The notes beneath the pieces are model-generated. The model was not told the origin of the DNA. It did not search any database and saw nothing but the letters and a program-made list of their open reading frames with translations. 60,910 nt of DNA from Pseudomonadota bacterium (GTDB taxonomy: Bacteria > Desulfobacterota > Binatia > UBA12015), in the NCBI GenBank assembly GCA_005777805.1, contig SXLG01000115.1, positions 1 through 60,910 on the forward strand. The letters run 5' to 3'. This document shows positions 38,181 through 60,910 of this stretch, piece after piece. How positions within the stretch are numbered: the stretch's first letter is position 1; every line of letters begins with the position of its first letter. The position numbers and the translations under genes were made by a program.

Positions 38181-39092
38181 ATGTCTGTGCGCCGCCCCGC
38201 CACCGTGCTCTCGGGCTTCCTCGGCAGTGGCAAGACAACCCTGCTGAACCATCTGCTCGCGGCCAACCACGGCCTCCGGATCGCCGTGGTCGTGAACGAA
38301 TTCGGCGAGATCGGGATCGACGGCCGGCTGCTCTCGGGGGCGGCGCGCTTCGTCGAGCTCGATAATGGCTGCCTCTGCTGTGCCATCAATGAGGATTTGC
38401 GGCGCACCCTGCTCGAGCTGGCCGAGTTTGCCGGCATCGACCACGTCGTGGTGGAGACCACTGGACTTGCCGACCCGCTGCCGGTGGGCTGGACCTTCGC
38501 GCGGCCCGAACTCGACGAGCACTACCGGCTCGACGCGCTGGTCACGGTGGTGGACGCGGCCGGTTTCGCGCGCGCGGCCGCCGAGGTGCCGGAGGCCTCG
38601 CTCCAGGTCGAACGCGCCGACCTGCTGGTGCTGGGCAAGCTCGATCTGGTCGACGACGATGGCCGCGCCTGCGAGGTCGCCCTGCGTGCCCTGAATTCCG
38701 AGGCGCCGATCCTGCGCGGAACTCGGGGTGATGTGCCGTGGCAAGCTCTGCTCGAGGCCCCACTCGAGCGGCGACCCGAGCGCTCAGGGCGGCCGGCCGG
38801 GCACACCGCGGGGACCTCGTTCGAGAGCTTCAGCGCTCGCCCCGAGGGTTACGTCGACCCCGAGCGCGTCGAGGATCTGCTCGAAGCGCTGGGCGCGCGG
38901 GTGTGGCGCGTCAAGGGCCTCCTCGCGAGTGGCCCCGGTCAGCGGATTGCGGTGCATTCCGTCGCGGGCAGGATCGAGATCGAACCCGCTCCGGAATCGG
39001 CGGCCGTGGGGCCGACGGGCCTCGTGTTCATCGGCCGGGATCTGGCCAGGCTGGGCCTCGCCGAGGCCTGCCGGCGCCTCGTTCGATCCTGA
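38181..39092 (+). CDS. COG0523/CobW-family G3E metallochaperone GTPase
   Basis: GFLGSGKTTLL, VVNEFGEIGIDG, NGCLCC, VETTGLADP, GKLDL; C-terminal RVKG...VFIG. Confidence 0.93.
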   Translation: MSVRRPATVLSGFLGSGKTTLLNHLLAANHGLRIAVVVNEFGEIGIDGRLLSGAARFVELDNGCLCCAINEDLRRTLLELAEFAGIDHVVVETTGLADPLPVGWTFARPELDEHYRLDALVTVVDAAGFARAAAEVPEASLQVERADLLVLGKLDLVDDDGRACEVALRALNSEAPILRGTRGDVPWQALLEAPLERRPERSGRPAGHTAGTSFESFSARPEGYVDPERVEDLLEALGARVWRVKGLLASGPGQRIAVHSVAGRIEIEPAPESAAVGPTGLVFIGRDLARLGLAEACRRLVRS

Positions 39093-39285
39093 GGGCGCGC
39101 GCCAGCCGGCAACCGGGGCGCGGCCCCGAGGGAGGCGCCGGATGCGGCGCGCCGAGGCGATCAGCCGCACGGTCGTGCGGCTCGGAGTCCGCCAATGAAT
39201 TGCGGAGGAAGGGCGGCGGTGGTGTCGAGAGGCCCATCACCGCCGACCCCAATTTACACAGGAATCAAATATAACTCGCACTCTC

Positions 39286-40107
39286 TCAGCCCAGGAGCTG
39301 CAGGGCGAGCTGCGGCTGCTGGTTGGCCTGCGCCAGCACGGCGACGCCGGCCTGCTGGAGGATTGTCGCGCGTGTCAAGTTTGCGGTCTCCTCGGCGACG
39401 TCCGTATCACGGATACGAGCCTCGGCGGCGGCGAAGTTCTCGCGGGCAACGCGCAGGTTGGCGATGGCGGTGTTGAGCCGGCTTTCGATGGCGCCGAGTG
39501 TGCCGCGGCGCTGGGCGATGGTCTCGATCGCCGAGGTGATGAGCGCCAGCGACGACTGTGCGCTGTCCTGGCTCGACACGGCTACGCCCGAGATACCCAC
39601 GCCGCTCGCCGAGCCGTCGACCGTACTGAAGGCGATCCGGCTGTTGGTCGTGCTGTCGAGTCCGACCTGGAGCGAGATCGTGGTGCCGGCCGAGAGCAGA
39701 TTGACACCGTTGAAGGTGGTCGAGTTCGAGATGCGGTCGATTTCCGACACCAGTGCCGAGAACTCCTGCTGCAAGGCACTGCGCTGCGTGTTGCTGACCA
39801 GTCCGCTGGCGGATTGCTGCGAGAGTTCCGAGAGCCGGGTCAGGATATCGCCGACCTTGCCGAGCGCTTTCTCGCCGATCGAGATCGCCGAGATGCCGTC
39901 GTTGGCATTGCGGATCGCCTGACTGGCGACCCGAGTATCGGCGCGCAGCTTGTCGGCGATGGCCAGACCGGCGGCGTCGTCGGACGCCGAGTTGATGCGC
40001 AAGCCCGACGACAGTCGCTCGAAAGACTTGGCCAGTGATTCCCCCGAGATCGCCAGTTGCCGCTGGGCGTTCAGCGAGGGGGCGTTAGTATTGACGTTCA
40101 GTGCCAT
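39286..40107 (-). CDS. fliC: Flagellin, minimal 273-aa type (copy 1, monocistronic, sigma54-type promoter)
   Basis: INSASDDAAGLAIA, QAIRNANDGIS, TTFNGV.LL, RGTLGA.ESRL, RIRDTDVAEE, QQAG..VLAQANQ.PQ; GGAGGA SD. Confidence 0.97.
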   Translation of the reverse strand: MALNVNTNAPSLNAQRQLAISGESLAKSFERLSSGLRINSASDDAAGLAIADKLRADTRVASQAIRNANDGISAISIGEKALGKVGDILTRLSELSQQSASGLVSNTQRSALQQEFSALVSEIDRISNSTTFNGVNLLSAGTTISLQVGLDSTTNSRIAFSTVDGSASGVGISGVAVSSQDSAQSSLALITSAIETIAQRRGTLGAIESRLNTAIANLRVARENFAAAEARIRDTDVAEETANLTRATILQQAGVAVLAQANQQPQLALQLLG

Positions 40108-40181
40108 TCGTCCTGTTCCTCCGTGGGCCGGCGGTCCATCGCCGGCGGTTCCAAGGGGCGCCGTGCCCCGATCGGGCGGAG

Positions 40182-40198
40182 CGCAGGACTCGTGCCAG
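40182..40198 (-). promoter_or_regulatory. sigma54 (-24/-12) promoter for flagellin copy 1
   Basis: CTGGCACGAGTCCTGCG on the minus strand vs consensus YTGGCACGNNNNTTGCW, with exact GG-N10-GC spacing, ~75 nt upstream of the ATG. Confidence 0.75.
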
Positions 40199-40312
40199 CG
40201 TCAAAGCCTCACAAATAGGGGCCACGGACGCCGCGCGGTCATTGAAGGGGGGCCTGGGGGGCCTTGGCCGGGCAGGAATTTCCGCCCCCGGCAGGCGCAT
40301 GAGGGTTTTCCC

Positions 40313-40340
40313 TCAAGTTTGTCTCCCGTCGTGACGAATC
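40313..40340 (+). promoter_or_regulatory. sigma28 (FliA)-type promoter for flagellin copy 2 and the flaG operon
   Basis: TCAAGTTT-N12-GACGAATC vs TAAAGTTT-N11/12-GCCGATAA. Same geometry as the site at 48213. Confidence 0.6.
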
Positions 40341-40436
40341 CCGGAGCGAGACATCAACCGTCCCGGGCCACGTGCCGGGGCACAAAGCGAGCCCGGCATG
40401 GACGTCGGGCTCCGGAAGGACACGGAGGACAAAGAT

Positions 40437-41258
40437 ATGGCTCTCACGGTGAACACCAACGTGCCGTCACTCTCGGCACAGCGCCACCTGGCGACTTCCT
40501 CGAGCTCACTCGGACGATCGTTCGAGCGGCTCTCGTCAGGCTTGCGCATCAACTCGGCGTCCGACGACGCCGCCGGTCTGGCCATCGCGGACAAGCTGCG
40601 CTTCGACGTGCGGGTCGCCAGCCAGGCGATTCGTAACGCCAACGACGGCATCTCGGCGATCTCGGTCGGCGAGAAAGCGCTCGGCAAGGTCGGTGACATC
40701 GTCGCCCGGCTGGCCGAGTTGGCCGAGCAGTCGTCCAGTGGATTGGTCAGCAACAGCCAGCGCAGTGCCTTGCAGCAGGAGTTCACGGCACTGGTGTCCG
40801 AGATCGACCGCATCTCGAACACGACGACTTTCAACGGCGTCAGTCTGCTCTCGTCCGGCACGACCGTGAATCTCCAGGTCGGCCTCGATGGCACGACCAA
40901 TAGCCGGATCTCCTTCAGCACGGTCGACGGCTCGGCGAGCGGCATCGGCCTCAACGCCGTGGCGGTGTCGAGTCAGGACGCTGCCCAGTCGGCCATCACC
41001 TCGATCACGTCGGCGGTCGAGACCGTGGCTTCGCGCCGCGGTACCCTGGGTGCGGTCGAGAGCCGTCTCAACACGGCGATCTCGAACCTGCGTGTGGCTC
41101 GTGAAAACTTCGCCTCCGCCGAGTCGCGCATCCGCGACACCGACGTGGCCGAAGAGACCGCGAACCTGACGCGGGCCACCATTCTCCAGCAGGCGGGCGT
41201 GTCGGTTCTCGCTCAGGCGAACCAGCAGCCGCAGCTGGCCCTCTCGTTGCTGCGGTAG
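40437..41258 (+). CDS. fliC: Flagellin, minimal 273-aa type (copy 2, head of the flaG-fliD-fliS-fliT operon)
   Basis: Same flagellin motifs; 46 substitutions in 273 aa vs copy 1 by hand count (~83% identity); GGAGGA SD. Confidence 0.97.
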   Translation: MALTVNTNVPSLSAQRHLATSSSSLGRSFERLSSGLRINSASDDAAGLAIADKLRFDVRVASQAIRNANDGISAISVGEKALGKVGDIVARLAELAEQSSSGLVSNSQRSALQQEFTALVSEIDRISNTTTFNGVSLLSSGTTVNLQVGLDGTTNSRISFSTVDGSASGIGLNAVAVSSQDAAQSAITSITSAVETVASRRGTLGAVESRLNTAISNLRVARENFASAESRIRDTDVAEETANLTRATILQQAGVSVLAQANQQPQLALSLLR

Positions 41259-41265
41259 GCGTGAG

Positions 41266-41304
41266 GTCCGTGCCGGGGCGGTGACAGAACGCCCCGGCAC
41301 GGAC
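41266..41304 (+). terminator. 15-bp perfect hairpin between fliC and flaG (attenuator/mRNA stabiliser)
   Basis: GTCCGTGCCGGGGCG-GTGACAGAA-CGCCCCGGCACGGAC followed by TT. Confidence 0.7.
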
Positions 41305-41317
41305 TTGCGGCTGTCGC

Positions 41318-41689
41318 ATGATCGACATCAGAAAAGACGAGGCGTCGCCCGCCACCGGACCTGAGCCACCAGCGGTTCCACGCGAGCCGTTGGGGCGGGT
41401 GAGAACGCCAGAACCCAAGGCCCCGCCTGCGGCCGAGACTGCGGTCGCGGGCAGAGCCGCGGGTGCCGCGGAGCGTCTGGCGGAGTTGCGCGAGAGGCTC
41501 GCCCGGCTCCCTGGAGTCCCCGGACGTGAACTCGCGATCCGCGTCGAACCGGGCAGCCAACGCATCGTGATCGAGGTGCGAGACGCGGAAACAAAGGACG
41601 TGGTCCGGCAAATTCCGCCAGACGAAAAGCTGGCGCTGCTGCGGGAACTCGCCCCTGGTCCCGGCACGCTGGTGGACCGGGAGGGATAG
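41318..41689 (+). CDS. flaG: FlaG flagellar protein
   Basis: RELAIRVEPGSQRIVIEVRDAETKDVVRQIPP.E.L...G.LVD; sits between fliC and fliD. Confidence 0.9.
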   Translation: MIDIRKDEASPATGPEPPAVPREPLGRVRTPEPKAPPAAETAVAGRAAGAAERLAELRERLARLPGVPGRELAIRVEPGSQRIVIEVRDAETKDVVRQIPPDEKLALLRELAPGPGTLVDREG

Positions 41690-43063
41690 ATGGCGCTGAT
41701 CACTTTCGGCGGGCTGGCCACCGGGCTCGACACCAACTCGATGATCGACAAGCTGGTCGCGCTCGAGCGCCGGCGCTCGGTCGGCTTTCTCGAACTCGAG
41801 CAGGCCGAGAATCAGGCGACCCAGGCCGCGCTGGGCTCGTTCGAGTCGAAGCTCGCGTCGTTCCTCGCCGCGGTGAACGGACTCCGCGACGCGCAGAGCG
41901 CGTTCAGCCGCACGGCGACTTCGAGCGACACCGCTGTTCTCGCAAGCACCGCCGGCAGCGGCGCACTCAACGGCTCGACGACCATTACCGTCGGCGCCCT
42001 TGCCCGGGGCGCCATCGGCACCTCGGCGACCGGAGTCGCCACCAGCACCAGCACGATCGCCTCGGGCAGCGGCACCTTCCAGTTCCAGGTCGGTACGGGT
42101 GCCACGCAGAGCGTGGCCGTCAGCGCCACGACGACGCTGGAGGAGCTGGTCGCGGCGGTCAACGAACTCGATGCCGGCGTCACGGCTTCCGCCGTCAATG
42201 TCGGCACCTCGGCGGCCCCCGACTACCGGCTCCGCATGGCGACGACGGGAACCGGCACCTCCAACGCGCTCAGCATCCTCGCCGATCCGACCGCGATCGG
42301 CGTGACGGTGACGCAGGCCGCGACCAACGCGAGTGTCAGCGTGAGCGGTTTCGCGACGGCCTTCACGCGCGAGAGCAACGTGATCGGTGACATCATCCCC
42401 GGGGTCACGCTGGCGCTCAAGTCGACCGGGGGCCCGGTCGACGTCACGGTCAACACCAATGCCACGGCGATCGGCGACCGAGTCGATGCCGTGGTCAAGG
42501 CGTACAACGATATCGTGAGCTTCGTCGAAGAAAACAGCAGCGTCGAGCAGGACACCGCCAGTGATGAGGGCACCGTCACCGCCGGTCCGCTCGCCTTCGA
42601 CGGGACCGTGCGCTCGATCCTGAGCGGCCTGCGAACAAACCTGACCGGCGCACTCGAAGGTCTCTCGGGGTCGTACTCGCTGCTCGCGGAAGTCGGGGTG
42701 ACCTCGACCCAGAACGGCCGCCTCTCCTTCGATCGCGGTAAGCTCGAGGCCGCGCTGGCCGAGGATGAAGACGGTGTCCTCGAACTCTTCGCGGGTAGCC
42801 AATCGAGCAGTGGGCTCTTCGACGGGGTGCATGCCTGGGTGACCGAGATCACCGGTTCCGGTGGCCTCCTCGAAGCTCGTCAGGACGGCATCAAGTCGGT
42901 GCTCACGACGCTGGAGGAGCGCATCCAGGCCGGCGAACGTTCGGCCACCGCTTACGAAGGGGAGTTGCGCGCCACCTTCGCGAGTCTCGAGGTGCTGGTG
43001 AACAGCCTGCAGACACAGGGCTCCGTTCTGCTCGGAGCGCTGGGAGGACTCAAGACATCATGA
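41690..43063 (+). CDS. fliD: Flagellar filament cap protein
   Basis: ITFGGLATGLDTNSMIDKLVALE, SN...DIIPGVTL.L, VKAYNDI, L.EVGV...QNG.LSFD..KL..AL, F..LE.LV..LQ.QG. Confidence 0.93.
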   Translation: MALITFGGLATGLDTNSMIDKLVALERRRSVGFLELEQAENQATQAALGSFESKLASFLAAVNGLRDAQSAFSRTATSSDTAVLASTAGSGALNGSTTITVGALARGAIGTSATGVATSTSTIASGSGTFQFQVGTGATQSVAVSATTTLEELVAAVNELDAGVTASAVNVGTSAAPDYRLRMATTGTGTSNALSILADPTAIGVTVTQAATNASVSVSGFATAFTRESNVIGDIIPGVTLALKSTGGPVDVTVNTNATAIGDRVDAVVKAYNDIVSFVEENSSVEQDTASDEGTVTAGPLAFDGTVRSILSGLRTNLTGALEGLSGSYSLLAEVGVTSTQNGRLSFDRGKLEAALAEDEDGVLELFAGSQSSSGLFDGVHAWVTEITGSGGLLEARQDGIKSVLTTLEERIQAGERSATAYEGELRATFASLEVLVNSLQTQGSVLLGALGGLKTS

Positions 43064-43470
43064 CGGCGTACCAGGCGAGAGCCCGACAATATCAGGAAGT
43101 CGAGTTCAACACGGCCGATCGTGGACGGATCCTGCTGGCGATGTACGACGGCGGTCTGCGCTTCCTCGCGCTGGCGGAGCGCGGGCTCGAGGTCGGCGAT
43201 TACGAGGTCTTCGGGCACAACCTCGGCCGTGCTCAGGCGGTGGTCGCCGAGTTGCTGCACACGCTCGACCACGAGGCGGGTGGCGAGATCGCGGCGAATC
43301 TCGAGCGGCTCTATCGCTTCCTGCTCGAACACCTGGTCGAGGCCAACGTGCAGAAGAGCGCCCGCCACGTCGCGGATGCGCGCCGCATCTTCGGGATCAT
43401 CGGCGGGGCCTACCGTGAGATCCTGGCCAACGGGCTTCCGGCGGTGATGGGGGATCGCAGTGCAGCCTGA
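43060..43470 (+). CDS. fliS: Flagellin export chaperone
   Basis: Y.E....TA..GRILLAMYDGGLRFL, RAQAVV.EL..TLD.E.GGEIA.NL.RLY; ATGA overlap with fliD. Confidence 0.93.
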   Translation: MTAYQARARQYQEVEFNTADRGRILLAMYDGGLRFLALAERGLEVGDYEVFGHNLGRAQAVVAELLHTLDHEAGGEIAANLERLYRFLLEHLVEANVQKSARHVADARRIFGIIGGAYREILANGLPAVMGDRSAA

Positions 43471-43879
43471 CCAAGCCGCGATACGGGCCAGCGAGCGCTC
43501 GCTCGAACTCTGGCAGGATCTGGCCGAAGCGTATGGCGAGATCGAATTGGCACTCGTCAGCGGACGCCCCGAGGCCGTCACTATAAAGTGCCTGACGACA
43601 CGCATCATGACTCTCGAGCGCGAACTCCTGGGACTCCTGGGGCCGATCGCGGCCTGGCGCAGCGACCCCTCGGCGGGCGAGGAACTGACTGGCCTCTGGG
43701 CCAGCACGGATCAGATCATCGCGGATCTGAGCAAGCGCCATCCGGCGCTGGTCCGGGCGGCGGTCGTGGCGCGCGACGGAGTGGGGGAAGAGCTGCTGCG
43801 CGTCGGCGAGCGTCGCCGTACGGCGGCCGCCTATGGCCGAGGGTCCCGCCGGTCGGCTCTGGCGTCGCGCGTGGTCTAG
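43460..43879 (+). CDS. Helical flagellar chaperone, FliT/FlgN-like
   Basis: 139-aa helical sequence overlapping the end of fliS, in the position normally held by fliT. No strong motif. Confidence 0.55.
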   Translation: MQPDQAAIRASERSLELWQDLAEAYGEIELALVSGRPEAVTIKCLTTRIMTLERELLGLLGPIAAWRSDPSAGEELTGLWASTDQIIADLSKRHPALVRAAVVARDGVGEELLRVGERRRTAAAYGRGSRRSALASRVV

Positions 43880-44020: not shown

Positions 44021-44037
44021 GTGGCATCGGCATTGCT
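44021..44037 (+). promoter_or_regulatory. sigma54-type promoter upstream of the glycosyltransferase genes
   Basis: GTGGCATCGGCATTGCT with correct GG-N10-GC spacing. Confidence 0.6.
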
Positions 44038-44049
44038 CGACAGGGGCGT

Positions 44050-45882
44050 GTGGATCGGAGCGCCTTCCGTTCGGCAAACCTCGGGGTCATCGCGCAACGC
44101 TGGCCCGAGCTCGCGCGGGCTCTTGCGGCGCATCGAGGTCCGCCGCCTGTGGGCTGGAGCGTCGCGCGGACGGCCGTCGGCGATCCCGTACTCTCGGTCG
44201 AGGGCCAGCGGATCGATCATCCCGCGGATCCGGCGGCCGGCGCACGCCGCTGGGCCATGGGGGTCGTCGAGCGGGCCGACACGATCAGTGCATCAAGCAT
44301 CGTTCTGATCGGCTTCGGGCTCGGCCATCAAGTCACCGCCCTCCTCGAACTGGGCCAGCGACCAATCGTGGTGATCGAGCCACGACTCGACCTTCTGGCC
44401 TGTGCTCTTGGTGAGCGAGATCTCCGGACGGTCCTCGAATCTCTGGCGGAACTCCGCGCGGGTGACGACGCCGTGTCCGACTTCGCCGCCGAGTCTGCCG
44501 CCGGCCGCGAGTGGGTCGATGCTCTGCCGGGGCTTTTGACGACTTCCCAACGCGACCACGCCGACGCGCTCGAGAAAGTGCGCCGGCGGCTCGGTCTCGG
44601 TGATCAGCGTCCGCTTCGGATCTCGATCGTTTCGCCGCTCTACGGGGGCTCTCACCCGATCGCGCTGGCGGCGGCACGTGGTCTGAGCCGACTCCGCCAT
44701 CAGGTGGAACTCCTGGATCTTTCTCGGTTCCAGGCAGCAAGGCAGGCGCTCGACCTCTTCAGCACCAAGCCATCGGCACGGCTCGGCCTCGAGGCCGGCC
44801 TGACGCAGGTGCTCGGCCGTGGCGTGTTGGCGCACGTCCGCCAGCGGCGGCCCGACGTTCTGCTCGCGTTGGCGCAGGCGCCTCTGGACGCCGAGGTCCT
44901 CCAACAGATCGGCCGCGAGGGGGTCCTGCGCGCAATGTGGTTTGTCGAGGACCACCGTCTGATGGACTACTGGCGGACGGTCGCGCCACATTACGACGCG
45001 TTCTTCTCGATCGAGGGCCCCGCCGCACTTGCCGCGATCTCCGCCCATGGCGGGGGTCTGGTGGCGCATCTGCCCTGCGCGGCCGACCCGGAACTCCATC
45101 GCCCGCTCGAGATCGGGCCCGGCGAACGGCGGCTCTGGGGAAGCGACGTCTCGTTCGTCGGGGCGGGCTACCGCAACCGCCGAGAGGGCTTGCGCCGTTT
45201 CGCCGATTTCGACTTCCGCATCTGGGGCAACGACTGGAACCAACCCGGTCCGCTCGCCGGTTTCCTCCAGCGTGGCGGACGCCGCGTCTCGAGTGAAGAG
45301 GCGGTCCGGATCTTCAATGCGACACGGGTCAACCTGAATCTGCACTCCTCGGCGTGGTGCGACGGCGTCGATCCGCAGGGTGATTTCGTCAATCCACGTA
45401 CCTTCGAAATCGCTGCTTGTGATGCTTTTCAGGTCGTGGATCGGCGTGCCGGCCTCGCCAGCGTCTTCGCCGAGGGCGATGGGATCGCCGTCGCGACAAG
45501 CATGGACGAGATGCGTGAGCTGACCCGGCATCATCTTGCCCGGCCAGAAGAGCGCCGCGCGCATGCTGCGAGAGCTCGCCGCCGCGTGCTGCGCGATCAT
45601 ACCTACGAGCACCGCATGGCCGACCTGGTCGCGGCGTTGCGGACGCGGTGGCCCGAACGATTCATGGGAGCGCGCGCTCTGGCCACGGTGGCCGACGCAA
45701 AGGGCCGTGCGCCGGCCGGATTGCGCGAGTTCCTGGCGCGGCTGCCCGGGGAGACACCCTTGCGCCTCGATGCGCTGGCGCGCGGGATCGGTCAGGGCAG
45801 TGGCGATCTCGACGACGCCGAGGGCCTGGTCCTCTTCCTGCATCAGTTCTCGGACCTCTACCTGGCGGAGGCGGGCCGATGA
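44050..45882 (+). CDS. Glycosyltransferase: N-terminal motility-accessory-factor (DUF115-associated)-like region plus CgeB/DUF3880-type GT domain
   Basis: N-terminal NL..I..RWPEL...G.PVL.VEG.RI.HP.DP...A..W...LIGFGLGH..VIEP; C-terminal P.YGGS.P, MWFVED, LP.AADP..H, SFVGAGY.NR, NPRTFEIAAC, HTYEHRM. Start GTG 44050 inferred; the ORF is open from 43588. Confidence 0.8.
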   Translation: MDRSAFRSANLGVIAQRWPELARALAAHRGPPPVGWSVARTAVGDPVLSVEGQRIDHPADPAAGARRWAMGVVERADTISASSIVLIGFGLGHQVTALLELGQRPIVVIEPRLDLLACALGERDLRTVLESLAELRAGDDAVSDFAAESAAGREWVDALPGLLTTSQRDHADALEKVRRRLGLGDQRPLRISIVSPLYGGSHPIALAAARGLSRLRHQVELLDLSRFQAARQALDLFSTKPSARLGLEAGLTQVLGRGVLAHVRQRRPDVLLALAQAPLDAEVLQQIGREGVLRAMWFVEDHRLMDYWRTVAPHYDAFFSIEGPAALAAISAHGGGLVAHLPCAADPELHRPLEIGPGERRLWGSDVSFVGAGYRNRREGLRRFADFDFRIWGNDWNQPGPLAGFLQRGGRRVSSEEAVRIFNATRVNLNLHSSAWCDGVDPQGDFVNPRTFEIAACDAFQVVDRRAGLASVFAEGDGIAVATSMDEMRELTRHHLARPEERRAHAARARRRVLRDHTYEHRMADLVAALRTRWPERFMGARALATVADAKGRAPAGLREFLARLPGETPLRLDALARGIGQGSGDLDDAEGLVLFLHQFSDLYLAEAGR

Positions 45883-47627
45883 GCGCGGTCGCGGCCGTGC
45901 CGTGGCCAGCGGAGTTTTCGCTCGGCTCTGGCGTGGTCGCGCCGGCGAATGCCCCGGGGCCGCGGCGGCGCAGCGCGCGGGTCGAACGCATCCTGATCTT
46001 GAATCTGACTCGGCTCGGCGATCTGCTCCAGACCTCCCCGACCATCGCGACCCTGCGCGCCCTCCACCCGGACGCCAGCATCACACTCGTCGCCGATCGC
46101 AATTTCGCAGCAGTGGCGCGCGGCATTCCGCATCTCGACGAGGTGCTGGAGGTCTCTCTCGACGACATGGGCCGCCAGATCCTCGAGGGTGGCGAGGGAT
46201 TGCTCAGCGCCTGGACCATGGCACGCGACCTCGTCGAGAGCCTGCGCTGCGCCCGCTTCGATGTCGCGCTCAATCTCTCGAGCTCGCGTATGAGCGCGAT
46301 ATTGATGGGTCTCGTCGGCGTGCCCGATACACGCGGCTGGTCGGCAACCCCGGACGGTTGCAGGGTGATTTGCGGGCGCTGGTCGAAGCTCTTCGCCGCG
46401 TCGTGCCTCCACCGTGCGGCCGCACCCTTCAATCTGGTCGACACCTATCGCTTGATCGCCGGTTTCGCCGCGGGGCCCGAGGCGCTCGCTTTCTCGGTCG
46501 GCGCCCCGGCGCGCGCCCAGGCGCGGGAGCTTCTGGCAGGGAGCACAGCACCGCGGGTGGCCTTTCAGCTCGGCGCCAGTCGTGAGATCCGACAGTGGCC
46601 GGTGGCGAGCTTTGCTGCCGTGATCCGGGCGCTGGCGGGCGTGGGCATCGAGGCCGTGTTGATCGGTGCGGCCGGCGATCACGGCCTCGCGGCGACCGTG
46701 GCGCAGCTCGCGGGCGTGCCGGTGCGCGATCTGACCGGGGCGACCGACATTTCCGGTCTTGCCGCCGTGCTCGGTGAGTGTGGCCTGCTCGTCACGGGCG
46801 ATACCGGCCCGATGCATCTCGCAGCGGCGGTGGGGACGCCCGTGGTCGGGCTCTTCTTCGGACCGGCTCTGCCGCACGACACCGGCCCCTACGGCCGTGA
46901 CCACCTTCTGGTCCACGCCGCGGTGCCGTGCGCCCCGTGTGCCCATGCGGCGGATTGTGGTGCGCCGTACTGTCGCCAGGAGATCTCGCCCGATTTGGTC
47001 GCCGCTCTCGTGCGCGACCGCCTCGCCGGCCGCTGGGAAGCGATCGAGCAACGCGCCCGTGCCGAGGCCATCGCACGGGTTCATCGAACAGATTTCGACG
47101 CTGCGGGATTCTTCCGCGCCACACCCCTGGATGGCCGCAGCGGCACGAACGATCTCCTCAGGCTCGCGCACCGGACGCTCTTCAGTGAGGAGTCCGGTGC
47201 GCCGGTGATATCGGACGCAATCGATGCCCCCGACGGAGTCGTGGTGCCATGGGCTGCGGGCGCAGCGGTTTTTGCGCGACTCGGCCTGCTGGCGCGCGAG
47301 GCTGCGGCCTGCGCGCAGCAGCTGGCCCGGGCGGGGAGCGCCGCGTCGTTCGATTCGGTGGAGCACGCGCACGCGAAGCTGCTCGCCGCCGAGGAGTCGA
47401 TCGCCACCCTGGCCGCTACTGCGCCCGAGATTCGTCTGCTCACCACGCTCACCGGCTTCGAGCGCGAGCGTCTGGACTCGGGAAGCGTCGAGTACCTCGC
47501 GCATCAGACCGCTGCCCTGCAGACCCGGCTCGCGCGCCGGGCGCTTCACGTGGCTCGCCAGCTCGCGGGCCCACTTCAGCAAGAAGGAGATTCGACATGG
47601 ATGTCTACCGCAACGGCGACCCTCTGA
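45879..47627 (+). CDS. GT9 (heptosyltransferase-like) glycosyltransferase with a C-terminal helical extension
   Basis: ILILNLTRLGDLLQTSP, QLGAS..IRQWP..SFA, LVTGDTGPMHLAAAVGTP, F.GPA...DTGPY, CAPC....C....C; ATGA overlap. Confidence 0.85.
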   Translation: MSAVAAVPWPAEFSLGSGVVAPANAPGPRRRSARVERILILNLTRLGDLLQTSPTIATLRALHPDASITLVADRNFAAVARGIPHLDEVLEVSLDDMGRQILEGGEGLLSAWTMARDLVESLRCARFDVALNLSSSRMSAILMGLVGVPDTRGWSATPDGCRVICGRWSKLFAASCLHRAAAPFNLVDTYRLIAGFAAGPEALAFSVGAPARAQARELLAGSTAPRVAFQLGASREIRQWPVASFAAVIRALAGVGIEAVLIGAAGDHGLAATVAQLAGVPVRDLTGATDISGLAAVLGECGLLVTGDTGPMHLAAAVGTPVVGLFFGPALPHDTGPYGRDHLLVHAAVPCAPCAHAADCGAPYCRQEISPDLVAALVRDRLAGRWEAIEQRARAEAIARVHRTDFDAAGFFRATPLDGRSGTNDLLRLAHRTLFSEESGAPVISDAIDAPDGVVVPWAAGAAVFARLGLLAREAAACAQQLARAGSAASFDSVEHAHAKLLAAEESIATLAATAPEIRLLTTLTGFERERLDSGSVEYLAHQTAALQTRLARRALHVARQLAGPLQQEGDSTWMSTATATL

Positions 47628-48160: not shown

Positions 48161-48212
48161 CGCCAGGGCGAGTGCCGAGGAGAACACCCTAAGGGTTTTC
48201 CCAGGGCGAGAC

Positions 48213-48240
48213 TCAAGTGGCGCCGGAGGCCGGCCGAAAC
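48213..48240 (+). promoter_or_regulatory. sigma28-type promoter of the chemotaxis operon
   Basis: TCAAGTGG-N12-GCCGAAAC, with spacing identical to the flagellin-2 site. Confidence 0.6.
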
Positions 48241-56567: not shown

Positions 56568-56584
56568 GTGGCACCCACCTTGCT
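56568..56584 (+). promoter_or_regulatory. sigma54 promoter of the TPR-kinase-regulator operon
   Basis: GTGGCACCCACCTTGCT = TGGCAC-N5-TTGCT, a near-perfect match. Confidence 0.75.
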
Positions 56585-56615: not shown

Positions 56616-59276
56616 GTGGCGACAGGGCATGGGAGAGGCCTGCGCACCCTCGTCTTGATGGGAGCTCTCGCGAGTCCGGTTGCCCTGGCGCCCGCTGCAC
56701 TCGCGGCGACAGTCGTGGAGGGCCCTGCTGTTTTCGAGGGGCCGCCCCATCTTCTCTGGCGTGAAGGTGGAGCGACTGCGGTCCTGCTGGCGCGCGGTCG
56801 CATCCGCGGCGCGTTGGCGCGGATCTCCAAGGCGGGGCAGGGCGAGGTCGTGGTGCCGGGTGCCACGTTCGATCGCCACTCGTTCCCGGCCACCGTCATG
56901 GCCCAAGCGGGCTTGCCTGGGCTGAAACTGAGCGAGACGGCAGATGGCGCGGTCCGGATCGAGGTCAGCGGCTATGCCCTCACGGAACTCGAGCCGCGCG
57001 TCGCCACAGCACCCGCGCGCCTATTGCTGCGCATCGGCGGCAGCCCGCGCGAAGCCGTGCCCACCGCCGGAGCTCTCGCCTCCGGGTTTGACGCGGGGCA
57101 GGAAGTGGCGCGCGCTACCGGGCCGGCACGCGGCGAGACCAAGTCGGCCGCACAGCCGCTCGAACTCGGGACCATCGCAGCGCAGGAGGTCGCGGTCGCC
57201 ACCGCGCCGGTACTCGGCGAGACCACGTCGGCCGCACAGCCCCTCGAACTCGGCCCCCCCCCAGCGCAGGACGCGACGCGCACCACCGCATCTATCGTTT
57301 CCGAAACATTGCTTCCCAGAGCAACGTCCGTATCTGACGACGCGGCGTTGGGTGCGCGAGAAGCTGTCGTTTCCGAAACATTGCTTCCCACAGCAACGCT
57401 CGCACCCTCGAGTCCGCCAGCACAGGGGGATCTCGTCGCGGCCGTGCTGCCCTCGGACGAACGGGGACCGACTCCCGAGGATGCCGCCCTCCCCGATGGT
57501 GCACCCGAGGAGGATTCGCGCGTCGCCATGGCGGGTGCCGGCGAGGTCGTGCCACTCGCGTCGACCGAGATCGCTTCCTCCGCAGACGCGCAGGTTGCGG
57601 CGCCGGCCCTCGCCCCGGTCGCGGAGCGGGCAGTGCCGGGTCCGGTCGCATCCCCGAGGCTCGAATGCCGCTGGCGCCGTCTGGCAGGGGTCGCCCTGTG
57701 TGCGCCCGACCCCAGCCTTTCGGTCTACCGCGCGACGCCCGAACTCGCGGCCGTCGCCGGTGCACTGAGCGAGGCTCGAGCGGCCCCACCGCCACGAATC
57801 GAAGCGGGCCAGATCGGGGCCGCGGCTCACTATCTTGCGGCCGACCGCGAACTCGTTGCCGCGGGCACCAGCGGATACCCCCACGCCGCCGTCGCGCTCT
57901 ACGAACGCGCGCTCAGGCTGCACCCCGATTTTGCCGACGCCCCGCGCGGCGTCGCGAATCTACTCCTGCTCTATCGCTCCCTCGGCTTCCGACCTGAACT
58001 CGAGCGCGAGGCTCGGCGCTCGGGCAGCGTGGGGCAGGGACTGGCGCAGGCTCTGCTCGGCGAGCTCACGCTCGAAGACGGCCACATTGATGAGGCACTT
58101 GATGGGTTCGGAGACGCCGCCGTGGCCGGCGGGATCGGGGCGTGCATCGCCCTTCGGGGACGCAGCCGTGCCGAGTTGGCGCGCGGACGCTCTGCCGAGG
58201 CGCGCACGGTCGCGGCCGGATTGTCCGAGATCTGTTCGTCCACCTTCCTCGAGGATCCGGCCAGTGAAGCGCTCGGGGTGTTGCTCGACGCGAACCTGAG
58301 TGGCGAGCGCGGCGTGGCCGCACGCCTCGTCGCGATCGCCGGGCGTCTCGCCGGCCGCGAGCAGGACGAGATCCTGAGACATGCGGTGCGCCTGGCTGCC
58401 TCCGACGAGAAAGCGGCGGGCGAAATCTGGCAGGAGATCGGCCGCCGCGGCGGGGCCTCGGCTGCGGGCCGGGCCGCGATCGAGGCGCTGGCACGGCGCG
58501 ACGCGCTGGGCGGGACTCCCGAGCGCGCCTTTGCCCGACTTTTGACCTTGCCACCGACCGCGGCCGACGCGGCTCGTCGGCGCGTCGAGCTGAGCCTTGC
58601 GGGAGCGGCGATCGATCGCGGCGCGTACGCAAAAGCATTCGGTCAGCTCTTCGAATCCGGGGCGGCCATCGACGAGCTCTCGGATCCGCAGGCGCGGGCG
58701 TTGCGCGATCACCTCGACCGACTCGGGGTGAGAACGGGCGGCACGAGGCCCGGTGCTGCAGCTCCTCCAGGCTCCGATACGACGGGCTTCGCCGTCGCGG
58801 CCCGAACGGCGGCTCTCGCCGGCTTCGGACCGGAGGTTCTCTCGAATACCCGTGCGCTGATCTCGCTCGATCCCGGTGCGGGAGCGGCGCTGGCGCTGGA
58901 ACTCGGCGAGGCTCTGGCCGTCGCCGACCCCGGTGTGGCCCTCGATCTGGTCGGACTCGGCGATCGAGCCGACCCACGCGCCCGCTGGCTCGAGGCGCGA
59001 GTCGCGCAACGCGCGGGCGAGAATGCGCGCGCGCTGGTGGCCTATGAGGAGCTGGCCCGCAGTCGCACGCAGCATCCCTTCAGCGGAGAGGCCGCGTGGC
59101 GCGGTGCGTGTCTGGCCGAGACGGCGGGTCGCGTGCAGCTCGCGCTCGAACTCTATCGCCACGCCGAGCGCACGGGCGATGAAATCACGCGGCGGCTCGC
59201 GGTCCTCGGTCGGCGGCGACTCGAGCGTGGCCCCGGCATGGCGGCGGGTGCCGCGGGAGGAGGCAGGGTCGGATGA
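56616..59276 (+). CDS. Large exported protein: signal peptide, beta-rich N-domain, repetitive Pro/Ala/Thr linker, TPR-like helical region
   Basis: RGLRTLVLMGALASPVALAPAALA signal; helical repeats such as AVALYERALRLHPD, ARALVAYEELA, ALELYRHA. Start moved from 56568, which lies inside the sigma54 site, to GTG 56616. Confidence 0.7.
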   Translation: MATGHGRGLRTLVLMGALASPVALAPAALAATVVEGPAVFEGPPHLLWREGGATAVLLARGRIRGALARISKAGQGEVVVPGATFDRHSFPATVMAQAGLPGLKLSETADGAVRIEVSGYALTELEPRVATAPARLLLRIGGSPREAVPTAGALASGFDAGQEVARATGPARGETKSAAQPLELGTIAAQEVAVATAPVLGETTSAAQPLELGPPPAQDATRTTASIVSETLLPRATSVSDDAALGAREAVVSETLLPTATLAPSSPPAQGDLVAAVLPSDERGPTPEDAALPDGAPEEDSRVAMAGAGEVVPLASTEIASSADAQVAAPALAPVAERAVPGPVASPRLECRWRRLAGVALCAPDPSLSVYRATPELAAVAGALSEARAAPPPRIEAGQIGAAAHYLAADRELVAAGTSGYPHAAVALYERALRLHPDFADAPRGVANLLLLYRSLGFRPELEREARRSGSVGQGLAQALLGELTLEDGHIDEALDGFGDAAVAGGIGACIALRGRSRAELARGRSAEARTVAAGLSEICSSTFLEDPASEALGVLLDANLSGERGVAARLVAIAGRLAGREQDEILRHAVRLAASDEKAAGEIWQEIGRRGGASAAGRAAIEALARRDALGGTPERAFARLLTLPPTAADAARRRVELSLAGAAIDRGAYAKAFGQLFESGAAIDELSDPQARALRDHLDRLGVRTGGTRPGAAAPPGSDTTGFAVAARTAALAGFGPEVLSNTRALISLDPGAGAALALELGEALAVADPGVALDLVGLGDRADPRARWLEARVAQRAGENARALVAYEELARSRTQHPFSGEAAWRGACLAETAGRVQLALELYRHAERTGDEITRRLAVLGRRRLERGPGMAAGAAGGGRVG
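57099..57287 (+). repeat. 84-bp (28-aa) in-frame tandem repeat, 2 full copies plus a partial third
   Basis: QEVARATGPARGETKSAAQPLELGTIAA / QEVAVATAPVLGETTSAAQPLELGPPPA / QDATRTT, starting at 57099, 57183 and 57267. Confidence 0.85.
57295..57398. repeat. 32-bp repeat / 40-bp unique spacer / 32-bp repeat inside the CDS
   Basis: TCGTTTCCGAAACATTGCTTCCCA(G/C)AGCAACG at 57295-57326 and 57367-57398, one mismatch. Confidence 0.85.
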
Positions 59277-60160
59277 TCACCGAAGCGCTGATGACGGGCG
59301 ATGTCGAAAATCTGCACGCAGCCTTTCGTGTCTTTACCGACGCGACCGCGAATCTCGAGCGCGAGTACCGCCGGCTTCAGATTCACGCCCGCGCCCTCAA
59401 TGACGAGCTCAGCGAGAAGAACCGCGCGCTCACCGAGAGCCTCGCGCGCCAGCGCGAGCTCGAGGCGCGTGCTCTCCGCCAGAGTCGACTGGCTGCGATG
59501 GGAGAGATGGCCGCGACGCTCGCCCACGAGGTGCGCAATCCACTCGGTGCTACCGAACTCTTCGCGCGACTCCTGCTCGACGAGATTCGCGGCAATCCGC
59601 GTGCGGAAGGGCTTGCCGAGCAGATCTCGCGCAGCGTCGCCGATCTCGATCACCTGGTCTCGAACATTCTCGACTTCACCCGTTTGCCCCAACCGGCGTT
59701 TGCCGACGTGCGGCTCGATCGCCTGCTCGACGAAGCCCTGCTCGCGGCCGGGGCGTTGCACGATGAGAACTATGCCATCGTGCGCTCGGTCGGTGCTGCC
59801 GTGCCCTGGAGTGCCGACCGCGGCCTGATCCGGCAAGCCCTGGTCAATCTCATCCGCAACGCGATGGAGGCGATGCCCGCAGGCGGGCAGATCCAGGTCG
59901 GCGCGTGGAGCGAGGGGCGCATTGCCCGGATCTCGGTCGCCGACGAAGGCCCTGGCATCGAGAGCGGCCAGGAGGACAGCATCTTCGGCGCTTTCGTCAC
60001 CACCAAGGCGCGCGGCACGGGTCTCGGGCTGGCGGTCGCGCGTGCTGCCGCCCTCTCCCACGGTGGCGCTCTCGAACTGGTCGGCGCGGCGCGCGGCGCG
60101 CATTTCGTTCTTTCCTTGCCGGCACAGCAGTCGCCGGCAGGCCTGGAGGATCGGTCATGA
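59273..60160 (+). CDS. Cytoplasmic sensor histidine kinase without a PAS domain (FleS/FlrB/FlgS-like)
   Basis: Coiled coil leading directly into [20 protein letters not shown]; [30 protein letters not shown]. No TM segment. Confidence 0.92.
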
Positions 60161-60910
60161 AGCAAATCATTCTGGTTGTCGATGACGACGTGCGAATGCG
60201 CATCGGCGTGGCCGAGGTGCTGAGTCGGGGTGGCTACGAGGTCGAGCAGGCCAGTGATGGTCGGGCCGGCCTCGATGCCCTCACCCGCAGGCTGCCGGAT
60301 CTGGTGGTCTCCGACATGCGTATGCCCGGCATGTCGGGCAGCGAGTTGCTGGCACGGATCCAGGAACGTTGGCCGGGTCTCCCGGTCGTCCTGATCACGG
60401 CCTATGGCACCGTCGAGGACGCGGTCTCGGCGATGAAGTGTGGGGCTCGCGAGTTTCTGACCAAACCCTTCTCGCCACAGGACCTTCTGCATCTCGTGCG
60501 CGGTATCCTCGAGGACGGCCTCGCCGAGCCGACGTCGCGTCCGCCCAGCGCCAACCGCGCGATCCTGACCCGGTCGCCCGCGCTGCAGCGGGTGATCGAG
60601 ATTGGCGCAGGTGTCGCCGCGAGCCGGGCGCCGGTCCTGCTGCAGGGCGAGAGCGGCACCGGCAAGGAGCTTTTTGCGCGTTTCCTGCACGAGGCCGGTC
60701 CGCGCGTGGGGCAGGCATTCGTCGCCGTCAACTGCGCGGCCCTGCCCCGGGAACTGCTGGAGAGCGAACTCTTTGGTCACGAAAAAGGCGCGTTCACCGG
60801 CGCTGTGACACGCAAGCTCGGGCGTTTCGAGCTGGCCCATCGCGGCACCTTGCTGCTCGACGAGATCAGCGAGATGGAGCTCGGCTTGCAGGCCAAGCTG
60901 CTGCGCGTGC
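60157..60910 (+). CDS. sigma54-dependent response regulator (FleR/FlrC/FlgR-like), truncated by the window end
   Basis: REC ([23 protein letters not shown]), then AAA+ [40 protein letters not shown]; ATGA overlap with the kinase. Confidence 0.95.

Follow-up and report, generated by a model that had tools for sequence, protein, structure and literature searches.

Head-to-head flagellin genes with predicted sigma-54 and sigma-28 promoters and candidate CsrA sites in an uncultured Binatia genome

How are two closely similar flagellin genes, transcribed away from each other out of one short spacer, regulated, and how did such a layout arise? The question is raised by the 60,910-nucleotide stretch of DNA analysed here (the window), which is contig C100 of G000, a metagenome-assembled genome (MAG) of an uncultured bacterium of the class Binatia, phylum Binatota (3.6 Mb in 194 contigs, 69% GC). 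Two flagellin genes, L on the minus strand and R on the plus strand, lie head-to-head in it around a spacer of 329 bp (40108-40436). The division of flagellin paralogues between RpoN (sigma-54) and FliA (sigma-28) is textbook knowledge for Campylobacterota, Vibrio and Shewanella, and the FliW-CsrA switch is known as well. The likely explanation of the present locus, as read from sequence comparison, is that the head-to-head pair arose by duplication, that L is transcribed via sigma-54 and R via sigma-28, and that FliW-CsrA acts on both.

The first-pass annotation of this DNA had described two divergent flagellins of 273 amino acids, about 83% identical, on either side of this spacer, and the open reading frames (ORFs), Pfam and BLASTP all agreed with the description. 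The two proteins shared 227 of 272 residues (83%) without gaps in BLASTP, and both contained Flagellin_N and Flagellin_C (Pfam E-values of 1e-40 and 1e-23); the NCBIfam flagellin models also matched both, but below their equivalog cut-offs. The genes belong to a flagellar locus, with the cap and chaperone genes flaG, fliD and fliS directly 3' of R, and a scan of named genomes, which yielded distant flagellins for the most part, placed the flagellin closest to that of a Candidatus Binatia MAG (76% identity). The start of R at 40437 was backed by the conserved N-terminus MALTVNTN and by a ribosome-binding site (RBS). The same divergent pair was present in a genome of the same genus (G001) and in one of the same family (G017). 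An assembly artefact was ruled out, since the pair was assembled independently in these three MAGs and the two copies were merely 79% identical in nucleotides. The L protein was 93% identical to that of G001 while the third positions of conserved codons were identical in only 59%, which indicates purifying selection on L.

Each gene is preceded in the spacer by a promoter motif of a different type, and the two motifs, which the first-pass annotation had placed at 40182-40198 and 40313-40340, were both verified in the sequence. The L motif CTGGCACGAGTCCTGCG, read from 40198 to 40182 on the minus strand, carries GG and GC 10 nt apart. Compared with the sigma-54 consensus YTGGCACGR-N3-TTGCW, in which GG (-24) and GC (-12) are exactly 10 nt apart, it reads CTGGCACGA-GTC-CTGCG, with a perfect -24 half and a -12 half made up of TGC and two flanking mismatches. 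The site lies 90 nt 5' of the L ATG, and sites of this type were found at -90 and -99 in G001 and G017, respectively, within a flanking spacer that has diverged. Transcription of L is predicted to start at about 40171, with a leader of about 64 nt. Alignment of the three spacers showed near-random divergence outside a few blocks. The first of these was GCA...CGTGCCA, corresponding to TGGCACG-N-TGC on the L strand, and the second was TTTTYCTCAAGT, followed by CGAAT at a fixed 22 nt; the remaining conserved blocks were both ribosome-binding sites and one hairpin per leader.

The second block belongs to the promoter of R, where the plus strand at 40313-40340 reads TCAAGTTT GTCTCCCGTCGT GACGAATC. 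The transcription start of R is predicted at about 40346-40348, with a leader of about 90 nt. Compared with the sigma-28 consensus TAAAGTTT-N11/12-GCCGATAA, the -35 element shows a single change, the TCAAG variant known from Pseudomonas, and the -10 element retains G-CGA and loses TAA. An R-type motif was found 5' of every complete single flagellin gene examined in the class, and these motifs formed a graded series: canonical TAAAGTTG-N12-GCCGATAA in G023, TCAAGT followed by CCGATA or GACGATA in G027, G031, G039 and G114, and TCAAGTT-N12-CTCGAAT or GACGAAT in the family of the window itself. The grading of these orthologous sites into the canonical motif supports the homology of the R site, and R is therefore probably served by a FliA-type promoter that has diverged and that represents the ancestral state.

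The two promoter types were also found elsewhere in the genome in front of genes with flagellar functions. Loose genome-wide expressions for both motifs returned mostly noise, and the informative matches came from tighter patterns combined with gene context. The sigma-28-type motif stands 5' of the che operon in the window (cheX, response regulator, HDOD, cheA, cheW, cheY, cheB, cheR; Table 1) and, as TCAAGTCG-N12-GGCCGATG, 5' of motA (C34:4916; motA confirmed by Pfam), both of them with the pattern TCAAGT-N14-(G/A)CCGA(A/T). A canonical TAAAG...GCCGATA precedes the gene of a methyl-accepting chemotaxis protein (C77:17983). The sigma-54 site TGGCACGGCCGTTGCG stands 5' of flgF-flgG, right after flhA-flhG-fliA on C190, and a sigma-54 site was also found 5' of a type IV pilin gene. 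In the window, a perfect consensus lies just 5' of a glycosyltransferase gene with a Maf-N-like region, which is followed by a GT9 enzyme (45648-47627); by analogy with Campylobacter and Helicobacter, these two are probably flagellin glycosylation genes of the RpoN class. A further consensus, TGGCACCCACCTTGCT, precedes the operon that begins at 56569, in which a large ORF (56616-59276) had no family match and the kinase/regulator pair at 59273-60909 is a candidate for an activator of flagellar sigma-54 promoters similar to FlrBC, FleSR or FlgSR. A specific label of FlgSR, FlrBC or FlbD was rejected for this pair because all matches were below the model cut-offs.

Every factor required for such a division is encoded in the genome. 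The rpoN gene is located on C113 and is also present in G001 and G017, and Sigma54_activat gave 15 matches in G000, one of which lies within the window. Three sigma factors of the FliA/WhiG type scored above the TIGR02479 cut-off (C104:42198-43621, C138:3489-4313 and C190:3431-4096). The fliA gene in flagellar context is the one on C190, after flhA-flhG, and flgM is on C6, upstream of flgK. On C104, a second FlgM-like ORF comes after the FliA-like sigma factor gene, in surroundings that are not flagellar. The first-pass assignment of sigma-54 to L and sigma-28 to R is probably correct and was upheld by the footprinting in the three-genome alignment, by the regulon logic within the genome and by the presence of rpoN, fliA, flgM and activators.

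Several observations weigh against this assignment. In the three genomes, the -12 region of the L site is CTGCG, CTGCG or GTGCA in place of TTGCW. The pattern TGGCA[CT]-N5-[TC]TGC matched the genome 44 times against about 33 matches expected from base composition, so that a lone sigma-54 match is weak evidence, and it is the conservation across genomes that gives the site its weight. Neither the three-genome alignment nor the inverted-repeat search revealed a conserved activator site or dyad in the spacer, the latter returning the leader hairpins and weak dyads only. At R, the -10 element GACGAAT deviates from GCCGATAA, and any of the three FliA/WhiG-type sigma factors, including the one in the second FliA-like/FlgM-like pair on C104, could be the reader of the R promoter. 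In addition, the estimated completeness of the MAG is just 70%. Some flagellar activators (FlgR) act without DNA binding, and FlrC is able to bind downstream of the start.

The off-consensus -12 region, the frequency of the pattern in a GC-rich genome and the negative search for an activator site would also suit an alternative in which both flagellins in practice use the same sigma factor and the L site has another role, such as the binding of a regulator, or is a weak accessory promoter. We consider this alternative unlikely. None of the three genomes showed a sigma-28- or sigma-70-type motif 5' of L, TGGCACG and TGC have kept the exact GG-N10-GC spacing and their distance to the ATG amid diverged surroundings, and other flagellar genes of the genome bear sigma-54 sites. 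A scan of 38900-41800 for sigma-70 promoters gave none.

In addition to the two promoters, the leaders of both mRNAs carry elements pointing to control of translation. Each leader contains a hairpin with an AUGGAC hexaloop, followed 15-27 nt downstream by ACGGAGGA at the RBS, so that both L and R have two GGA motifs, one in the hairpin loop and one overlapping the RBS. The hairpin was seen in the window and in the loci L012-L021 and L121-L129 across the class. Among 16 distinct Binatia flagellin leaders, the loop A-N-GGA was invariant (16/16), all stem pairs showed compensatory changes (7/7) and 84% of the cells were paired; the covariation score was reached by none of 500 shuffles, and sliding the register by one column reduced the pairing to 45-54%. 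The csrA and fliW genes are adjacent on C6:2088-2835, next to flgK and downstream of flgM. In C. jejuni, CsrA binds ANGGA loops of the flaA leader and also the flaB leader (PMC4894983). The RBS and the hairpin of the L leader are candidates for the CsrA sites BS2 and BS1, respectively. Since csrA and fliW are present, the A-N-GGA hairpins covary and the ribosome-binding sites are GGA-rich, both genes are probably subject to control of translation by FliW-CsrA. These CsrA-type sites represent a probable third layer of control, which the first-pass annotation had missed. Both mRNAs would probably be held until FliW is freed by export, and earlier transcription of L therefore need not mean earlier protein. 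An Rfam scan of the window gave nothing at gathering thresholds.

The origin of the pair was examined in related genomes. Flagellin of this type was present in 43 of 401 sampled genomes of the class and was mostly single-copy, and the head-to-head pair was restricted to G000, G001 and G017 (3 of the 43 flagellin-bearing genomes). The survey of synteny in related MAGs that had been suggested as a check on the layout recovered the same pair and the same flanks in G001 and G017, with AcrB, CoA-transferase, cobW, L, R, flaG and fliD common to all three; the shared flanking genes show that the arrangement was inherited and is no assembly artefact. In the maximum-likelihood tree, the six L and R proteins formed one clade (90/97), within which the L clade (83/72) and the R clade (83/73) were sisters, and the single-copy relatives stood outside it. 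This topology points to one duplication. In family f9, flagellin genes occur as tandem pairs of which both members are of the sigma-28 type, which makes the sigma-54 site a feature specific to L in the divergent pairs. Taken from sequence, the polarity appears clear, with a head-to-head copy of a single sigma-28-type flagellin gene having gained a putative sigma-54 promoter.

A single flagellin suffices in most flagellated Binatia, and both this and the restriction of the divergent pair to 3 of 43 genomes would be expected if L were redundant and drifting, a duplicate without a role of its own whose promoter difference was functionally inconsequential. We regard this as quite improbable, since L is intact in three genomes under purifying selection and retains its own RBS, CsrA-type hairpin and promoter block.

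Parts of the two genes are more alike than the rest. In G000, L and R share an identical run of 50 nt, and their identity at synonymous sites was 80% in codons 30-90 against 63% overall. In G001, a sliding window over nucleotides 135-225 gave 97% identity between the paralogues against 83-89% between orthologues. These values are signs of local gene conversion or concerted evolution between L and R in the conserved N-terminal part. Such exchange would also suit recombination between L and R that flips the promoter cassette, a process resembling phase variation in which the sigma factor on the flaG-fliD-fliS side would be swapped and chimeric flagellins would form; so would the inverted repeat of 819 bp that the pair forms, which is 79% identical and contains identical runs of 47-50 nt. 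This idea seems hardly credible to us. The orientation was the same in all three genomes, with sigma-28 towards flaG-fliD and sigma-54 towards cobW, neither a recombinase gene nor a short crossover site was evident in the spacer, and the N- and C-terminal windows of G000 and G001 kept the orthology of L with L and of R with R.

Whether the two promoters influence each other was considered as well. The first-pass annotation had raised promoter interference or coupling in a compact switch, which found no support here. The core promoters do not overlap: across the three genomes, the -24 element is separated from the -35 element by 106-118 bp of poorly conserved sequence; with cores about 115 bp apart, there was no sign of interference. 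An 11-mer, AGGGTTTTCCC, borders directly on the -35 element of R and is found again at 48192-48202, where it lies 10 bp further from the che -35 element; three matches with at most one mismatch were found in the window against 0.37 expected. G001 and G017 retain only GTTTTYC at this position. The AGGGTTTTCCC/GTTTTYC box is located about 130-140 bp upstream of the predicted sigma-54 start. A shared factor acting on it could shift expression from L to R, and a flip of the cassette could change which sigma factor drives the fliD-fliS side. That the spacer is a bidirectional control unit working through a factor on this box, or else a cassette flipped by recombination between the inverted copies, is very improbable even when the two are taken together.

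The duplication followed by a division between sigma-54 and sigma-28 would then have proceeded and would operate in the following way. An ancestral single sigma-28-type flagellin gene, accompanied by flaG-fliD-fliS, would have been duplicated once in the ancestor of the three Binatia genomes, and the copy placed head-to-head with the original would have acquired a sigma-54 promoter. During basal-body assembly, RpoN and an NtrC-type activator, for which the kinase/regulator pair at 59273-60909 is a candidate, would transcribe L along with the rod/hook genes (flgFG) and the glycosyltransferase gene. R would be transcribed only after the export of FlgM has freed FliA, together with the che and mot genes. 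The two-site CsrA target on both mRNAs would tie translation to flagellin export via the FliW-CsrA partner switch, and as a net effect a pre-made pool of L mRNA would feed the first filament subunits, after which R would supply the bulk. The gene pair, its conserved motifs and hairpins and the full set of required factors can be seen in the sequence; the choice of sigma factor at either promoter, the order of expression and the place of L and R along the filament are inferred. By analogy with Shewanella, Campylobacter and Helicobacter, L may be the hook-proximal or minor flagellin and R the late or major one.

In known systems, the flagellin genes are arranged in other ways and the same kinds of control recur. 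The flaA and flaB genes of C. jejuni are in tandem and those of H. pylori are unlinked, V. cholerae has five flagellin genes in two loci, and the hag leader of B. subtilis has the same CsrA-target architecture as the leaders described here. In H. pylori and C. jejuni, the transcription of FlaB and FlaA is divided between RpoN and FliA, and FlaA of Vibrio is part of the same kind of division (PMC3930126). The predicted FliA/RpoN split of two paralogues in the window resembles that of FlaA (sigma-28) and FlaB (sigma-54, FlgSR) in C. jejuni and H. pylori, whereas the present genes are head-to-head, encode minimal 273-aa flagellins and belong to the phylum Binatota. The RpoN class of the same two species includes rod, hook and flagellin glycosylation genes (PMC3930126), and similarly sigma-54 sites stand here 5' of flgFG and of the Maf-like glycosyltransferase gene. 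ANGGA loops in flagellin leaders are likewise shared with C. jejuni (PMC4894983); CsrA binds flaB more weakly than flaA in that species, whereas both leaders of the window appear to be equally good two-site targets. In Shewanella, the FliA-independent FlaA is concentrated in the motor-proximal part near the hook, and most of the filament consists of the FliA-dependent FlaB (PMC6299084). The sequential production from two promoters in S. putrefaciens and S. oneidensis (PMC6299084) is the model that would apply here, with the differences that flaA lies upstream of flaB there and the genes are back-to-back here, and that the spatial sorting demonstrated there is only a prediction for L and R. The sigma-54-dependent flagellin of V. 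cholerae is the essential core flagellin (PMC3930126). V. cholerae, in which flaA depends on sigma-54/FlrC and the others on sigma-28, also shares with the genome studied here the flhA-flhF-flhG-fliA gene order and a two-component activator of the NtrC type (PMC3930126), but here there are two flagellin genes in one locus. As in the Hag-FliW-CsrA system of B. subtilis, csrA and fliW are adjacent and lie beside flgK/flgL, and the candidate sites are in a hairpin loop and at the RBS; that species has one SigD-only flagellin, whereas in the present genome a single module would act on two transcripts that depend on different sigma factors.

No new regulatory principle is revealed by these comparisons. 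The novelty lies in the phylum, in the head-to-head layout and in the evolutionary polarity, from a single sigma-28 gene to a pair in which the copy gains a putative sigma-54 promoter, and the sigma-54/sigma-28 division of flagellins and the FliW-CsrA switch would be extended from Campylobacterota, Vibrio and Shewanella to uncultured Binatota. A full-text literature search retrieved no paper on a divergent sigma-54/sigma-28 flagellin pair, which is a weak negative. The promoter and leader motifs can be used for annotating flagellar regulons in Binatia MAGs, and the compact 329-bp fragment is suited to reporter tests.

Table 1. Coordinates of the flagellin pair, its predicted control elements and associated features in the window
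Feature	Position	Strand	Remarks
Flagellin L	39286..40107	-	D0-D1 only; predicted sigma-54-dependent, monocistronic; converges on cobW-like gene
L leader	40117..40146	-	RBS GGAGGA 40117-40122; hairpin GCCGGCG-AUGGAC-CGCCGGC 40127-40146
Sigma-54-type promoter CTGGCACGAGTCCTGCG	40182..40198	-	-24 GG, -12 GC; conserved in G001, G017
Inter-promoter region, ~115 bp	40199..40312	.	Poorly conserved; carries AGGGTTTTCCC at 40302-40312
Sigma-28 (FliA)-type promoter TCAAGTTT-N12-GACGAATC	40313..40340	+	Fixed spacing in G001, G017
R leader	40389..40429	+	Hairpin GAGCCCGGC-AUGGAC-GUCGGGCUC 40389-40412; RBS ACGGAGGA 40422-40429; candidate CsrA sites
Flagellin R	40437..41258	+	Predicted sigma-28-dependent; orthologous to the flagellin of single-copy relatives
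Stable GC-rich hairpin, R stop to flaG start	41251..41318	+	From fold energy
flaG	41318-41689	+	Pfam FlaG
fliD	41690-43063	+	Pfam FliD_N/C
fliS	43060-43470	+	Pfam FliS
139-aa ORF 3' of fliS	43460-43879	+	No family match
Perfect sigma-54 consensus TGGCATCGGCATTGCT	44022-44037	+	Just 5' of glycosyltransferase gene
Glycosyltransferase with Maf-N-like region	44050-45882	+	
Sigma-28-type promoter TCAAGTGG-N12-GCCGAAAC	48213..48239	+	5' of che operon
Histidine kinase (HisKA)	59273-60160	+	Same operon as 56616-59276 ORF
REC + sigma-54-activator response regulator	59905-60909	+	Cut by contig end

The genes downstream of R had been described as an R-led series flaG-fliD-fliS-fliT, of which flaG, fliD and fliS stood by their Pfam matches and the last did not. 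The label fliT was rejected for the ORF at 43460-43879, which had zero family matches in Pfam or NCBIfam. A hairpin of 17 bp separates R from flaG (-54.1 kcal/mol, z -7.6), and none of 200 shuffles folded equally well; it has no U-tract, and this modelled fold probably serves as a terminator or attenuator or stabilises the 3' end. R may be largely monocistronic, with flaG-fliD-fliS expressed via read-through. Because so stable a hairpin lies between R and flaG, the view of R as the head of a flaG-fliD-fliS operon hinges on such read-through.

Within the class, a truncated flagellin gene of G005 (L120, G005:C463) is a possible further case of a flagellin with a sigma-54 site, having the sigma-54 consensus TGGCATCCCGGTTGCT at -223 and no sigma-28 motif. 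This gene is cut by the contig end and bears a CsrA-type hairpin. Contigs break inside flagellin genes in G005, G010 and G043, which suggests that additional copies are collapsed or unresolved there.

Among 80 diverse flagellin loci, 28 were multi-copy, almost all of them tandem, and two were divergent, so that the layout is uncommon and not unique. One of the two, L071 from a Rhodoferax MAG (JANXVI010000351.1), consists of a head-to-head pair around a spacer of 363 bp and lacks a sigma-54 site. The other, L044 from a Chromatiaceae MAG (JALSSC010000051.1), is arranged 2+2, includes an intervening ORF and shows a strong sigma-54 site, TGGCATTGGCCTTGCA, on one of the two sides.

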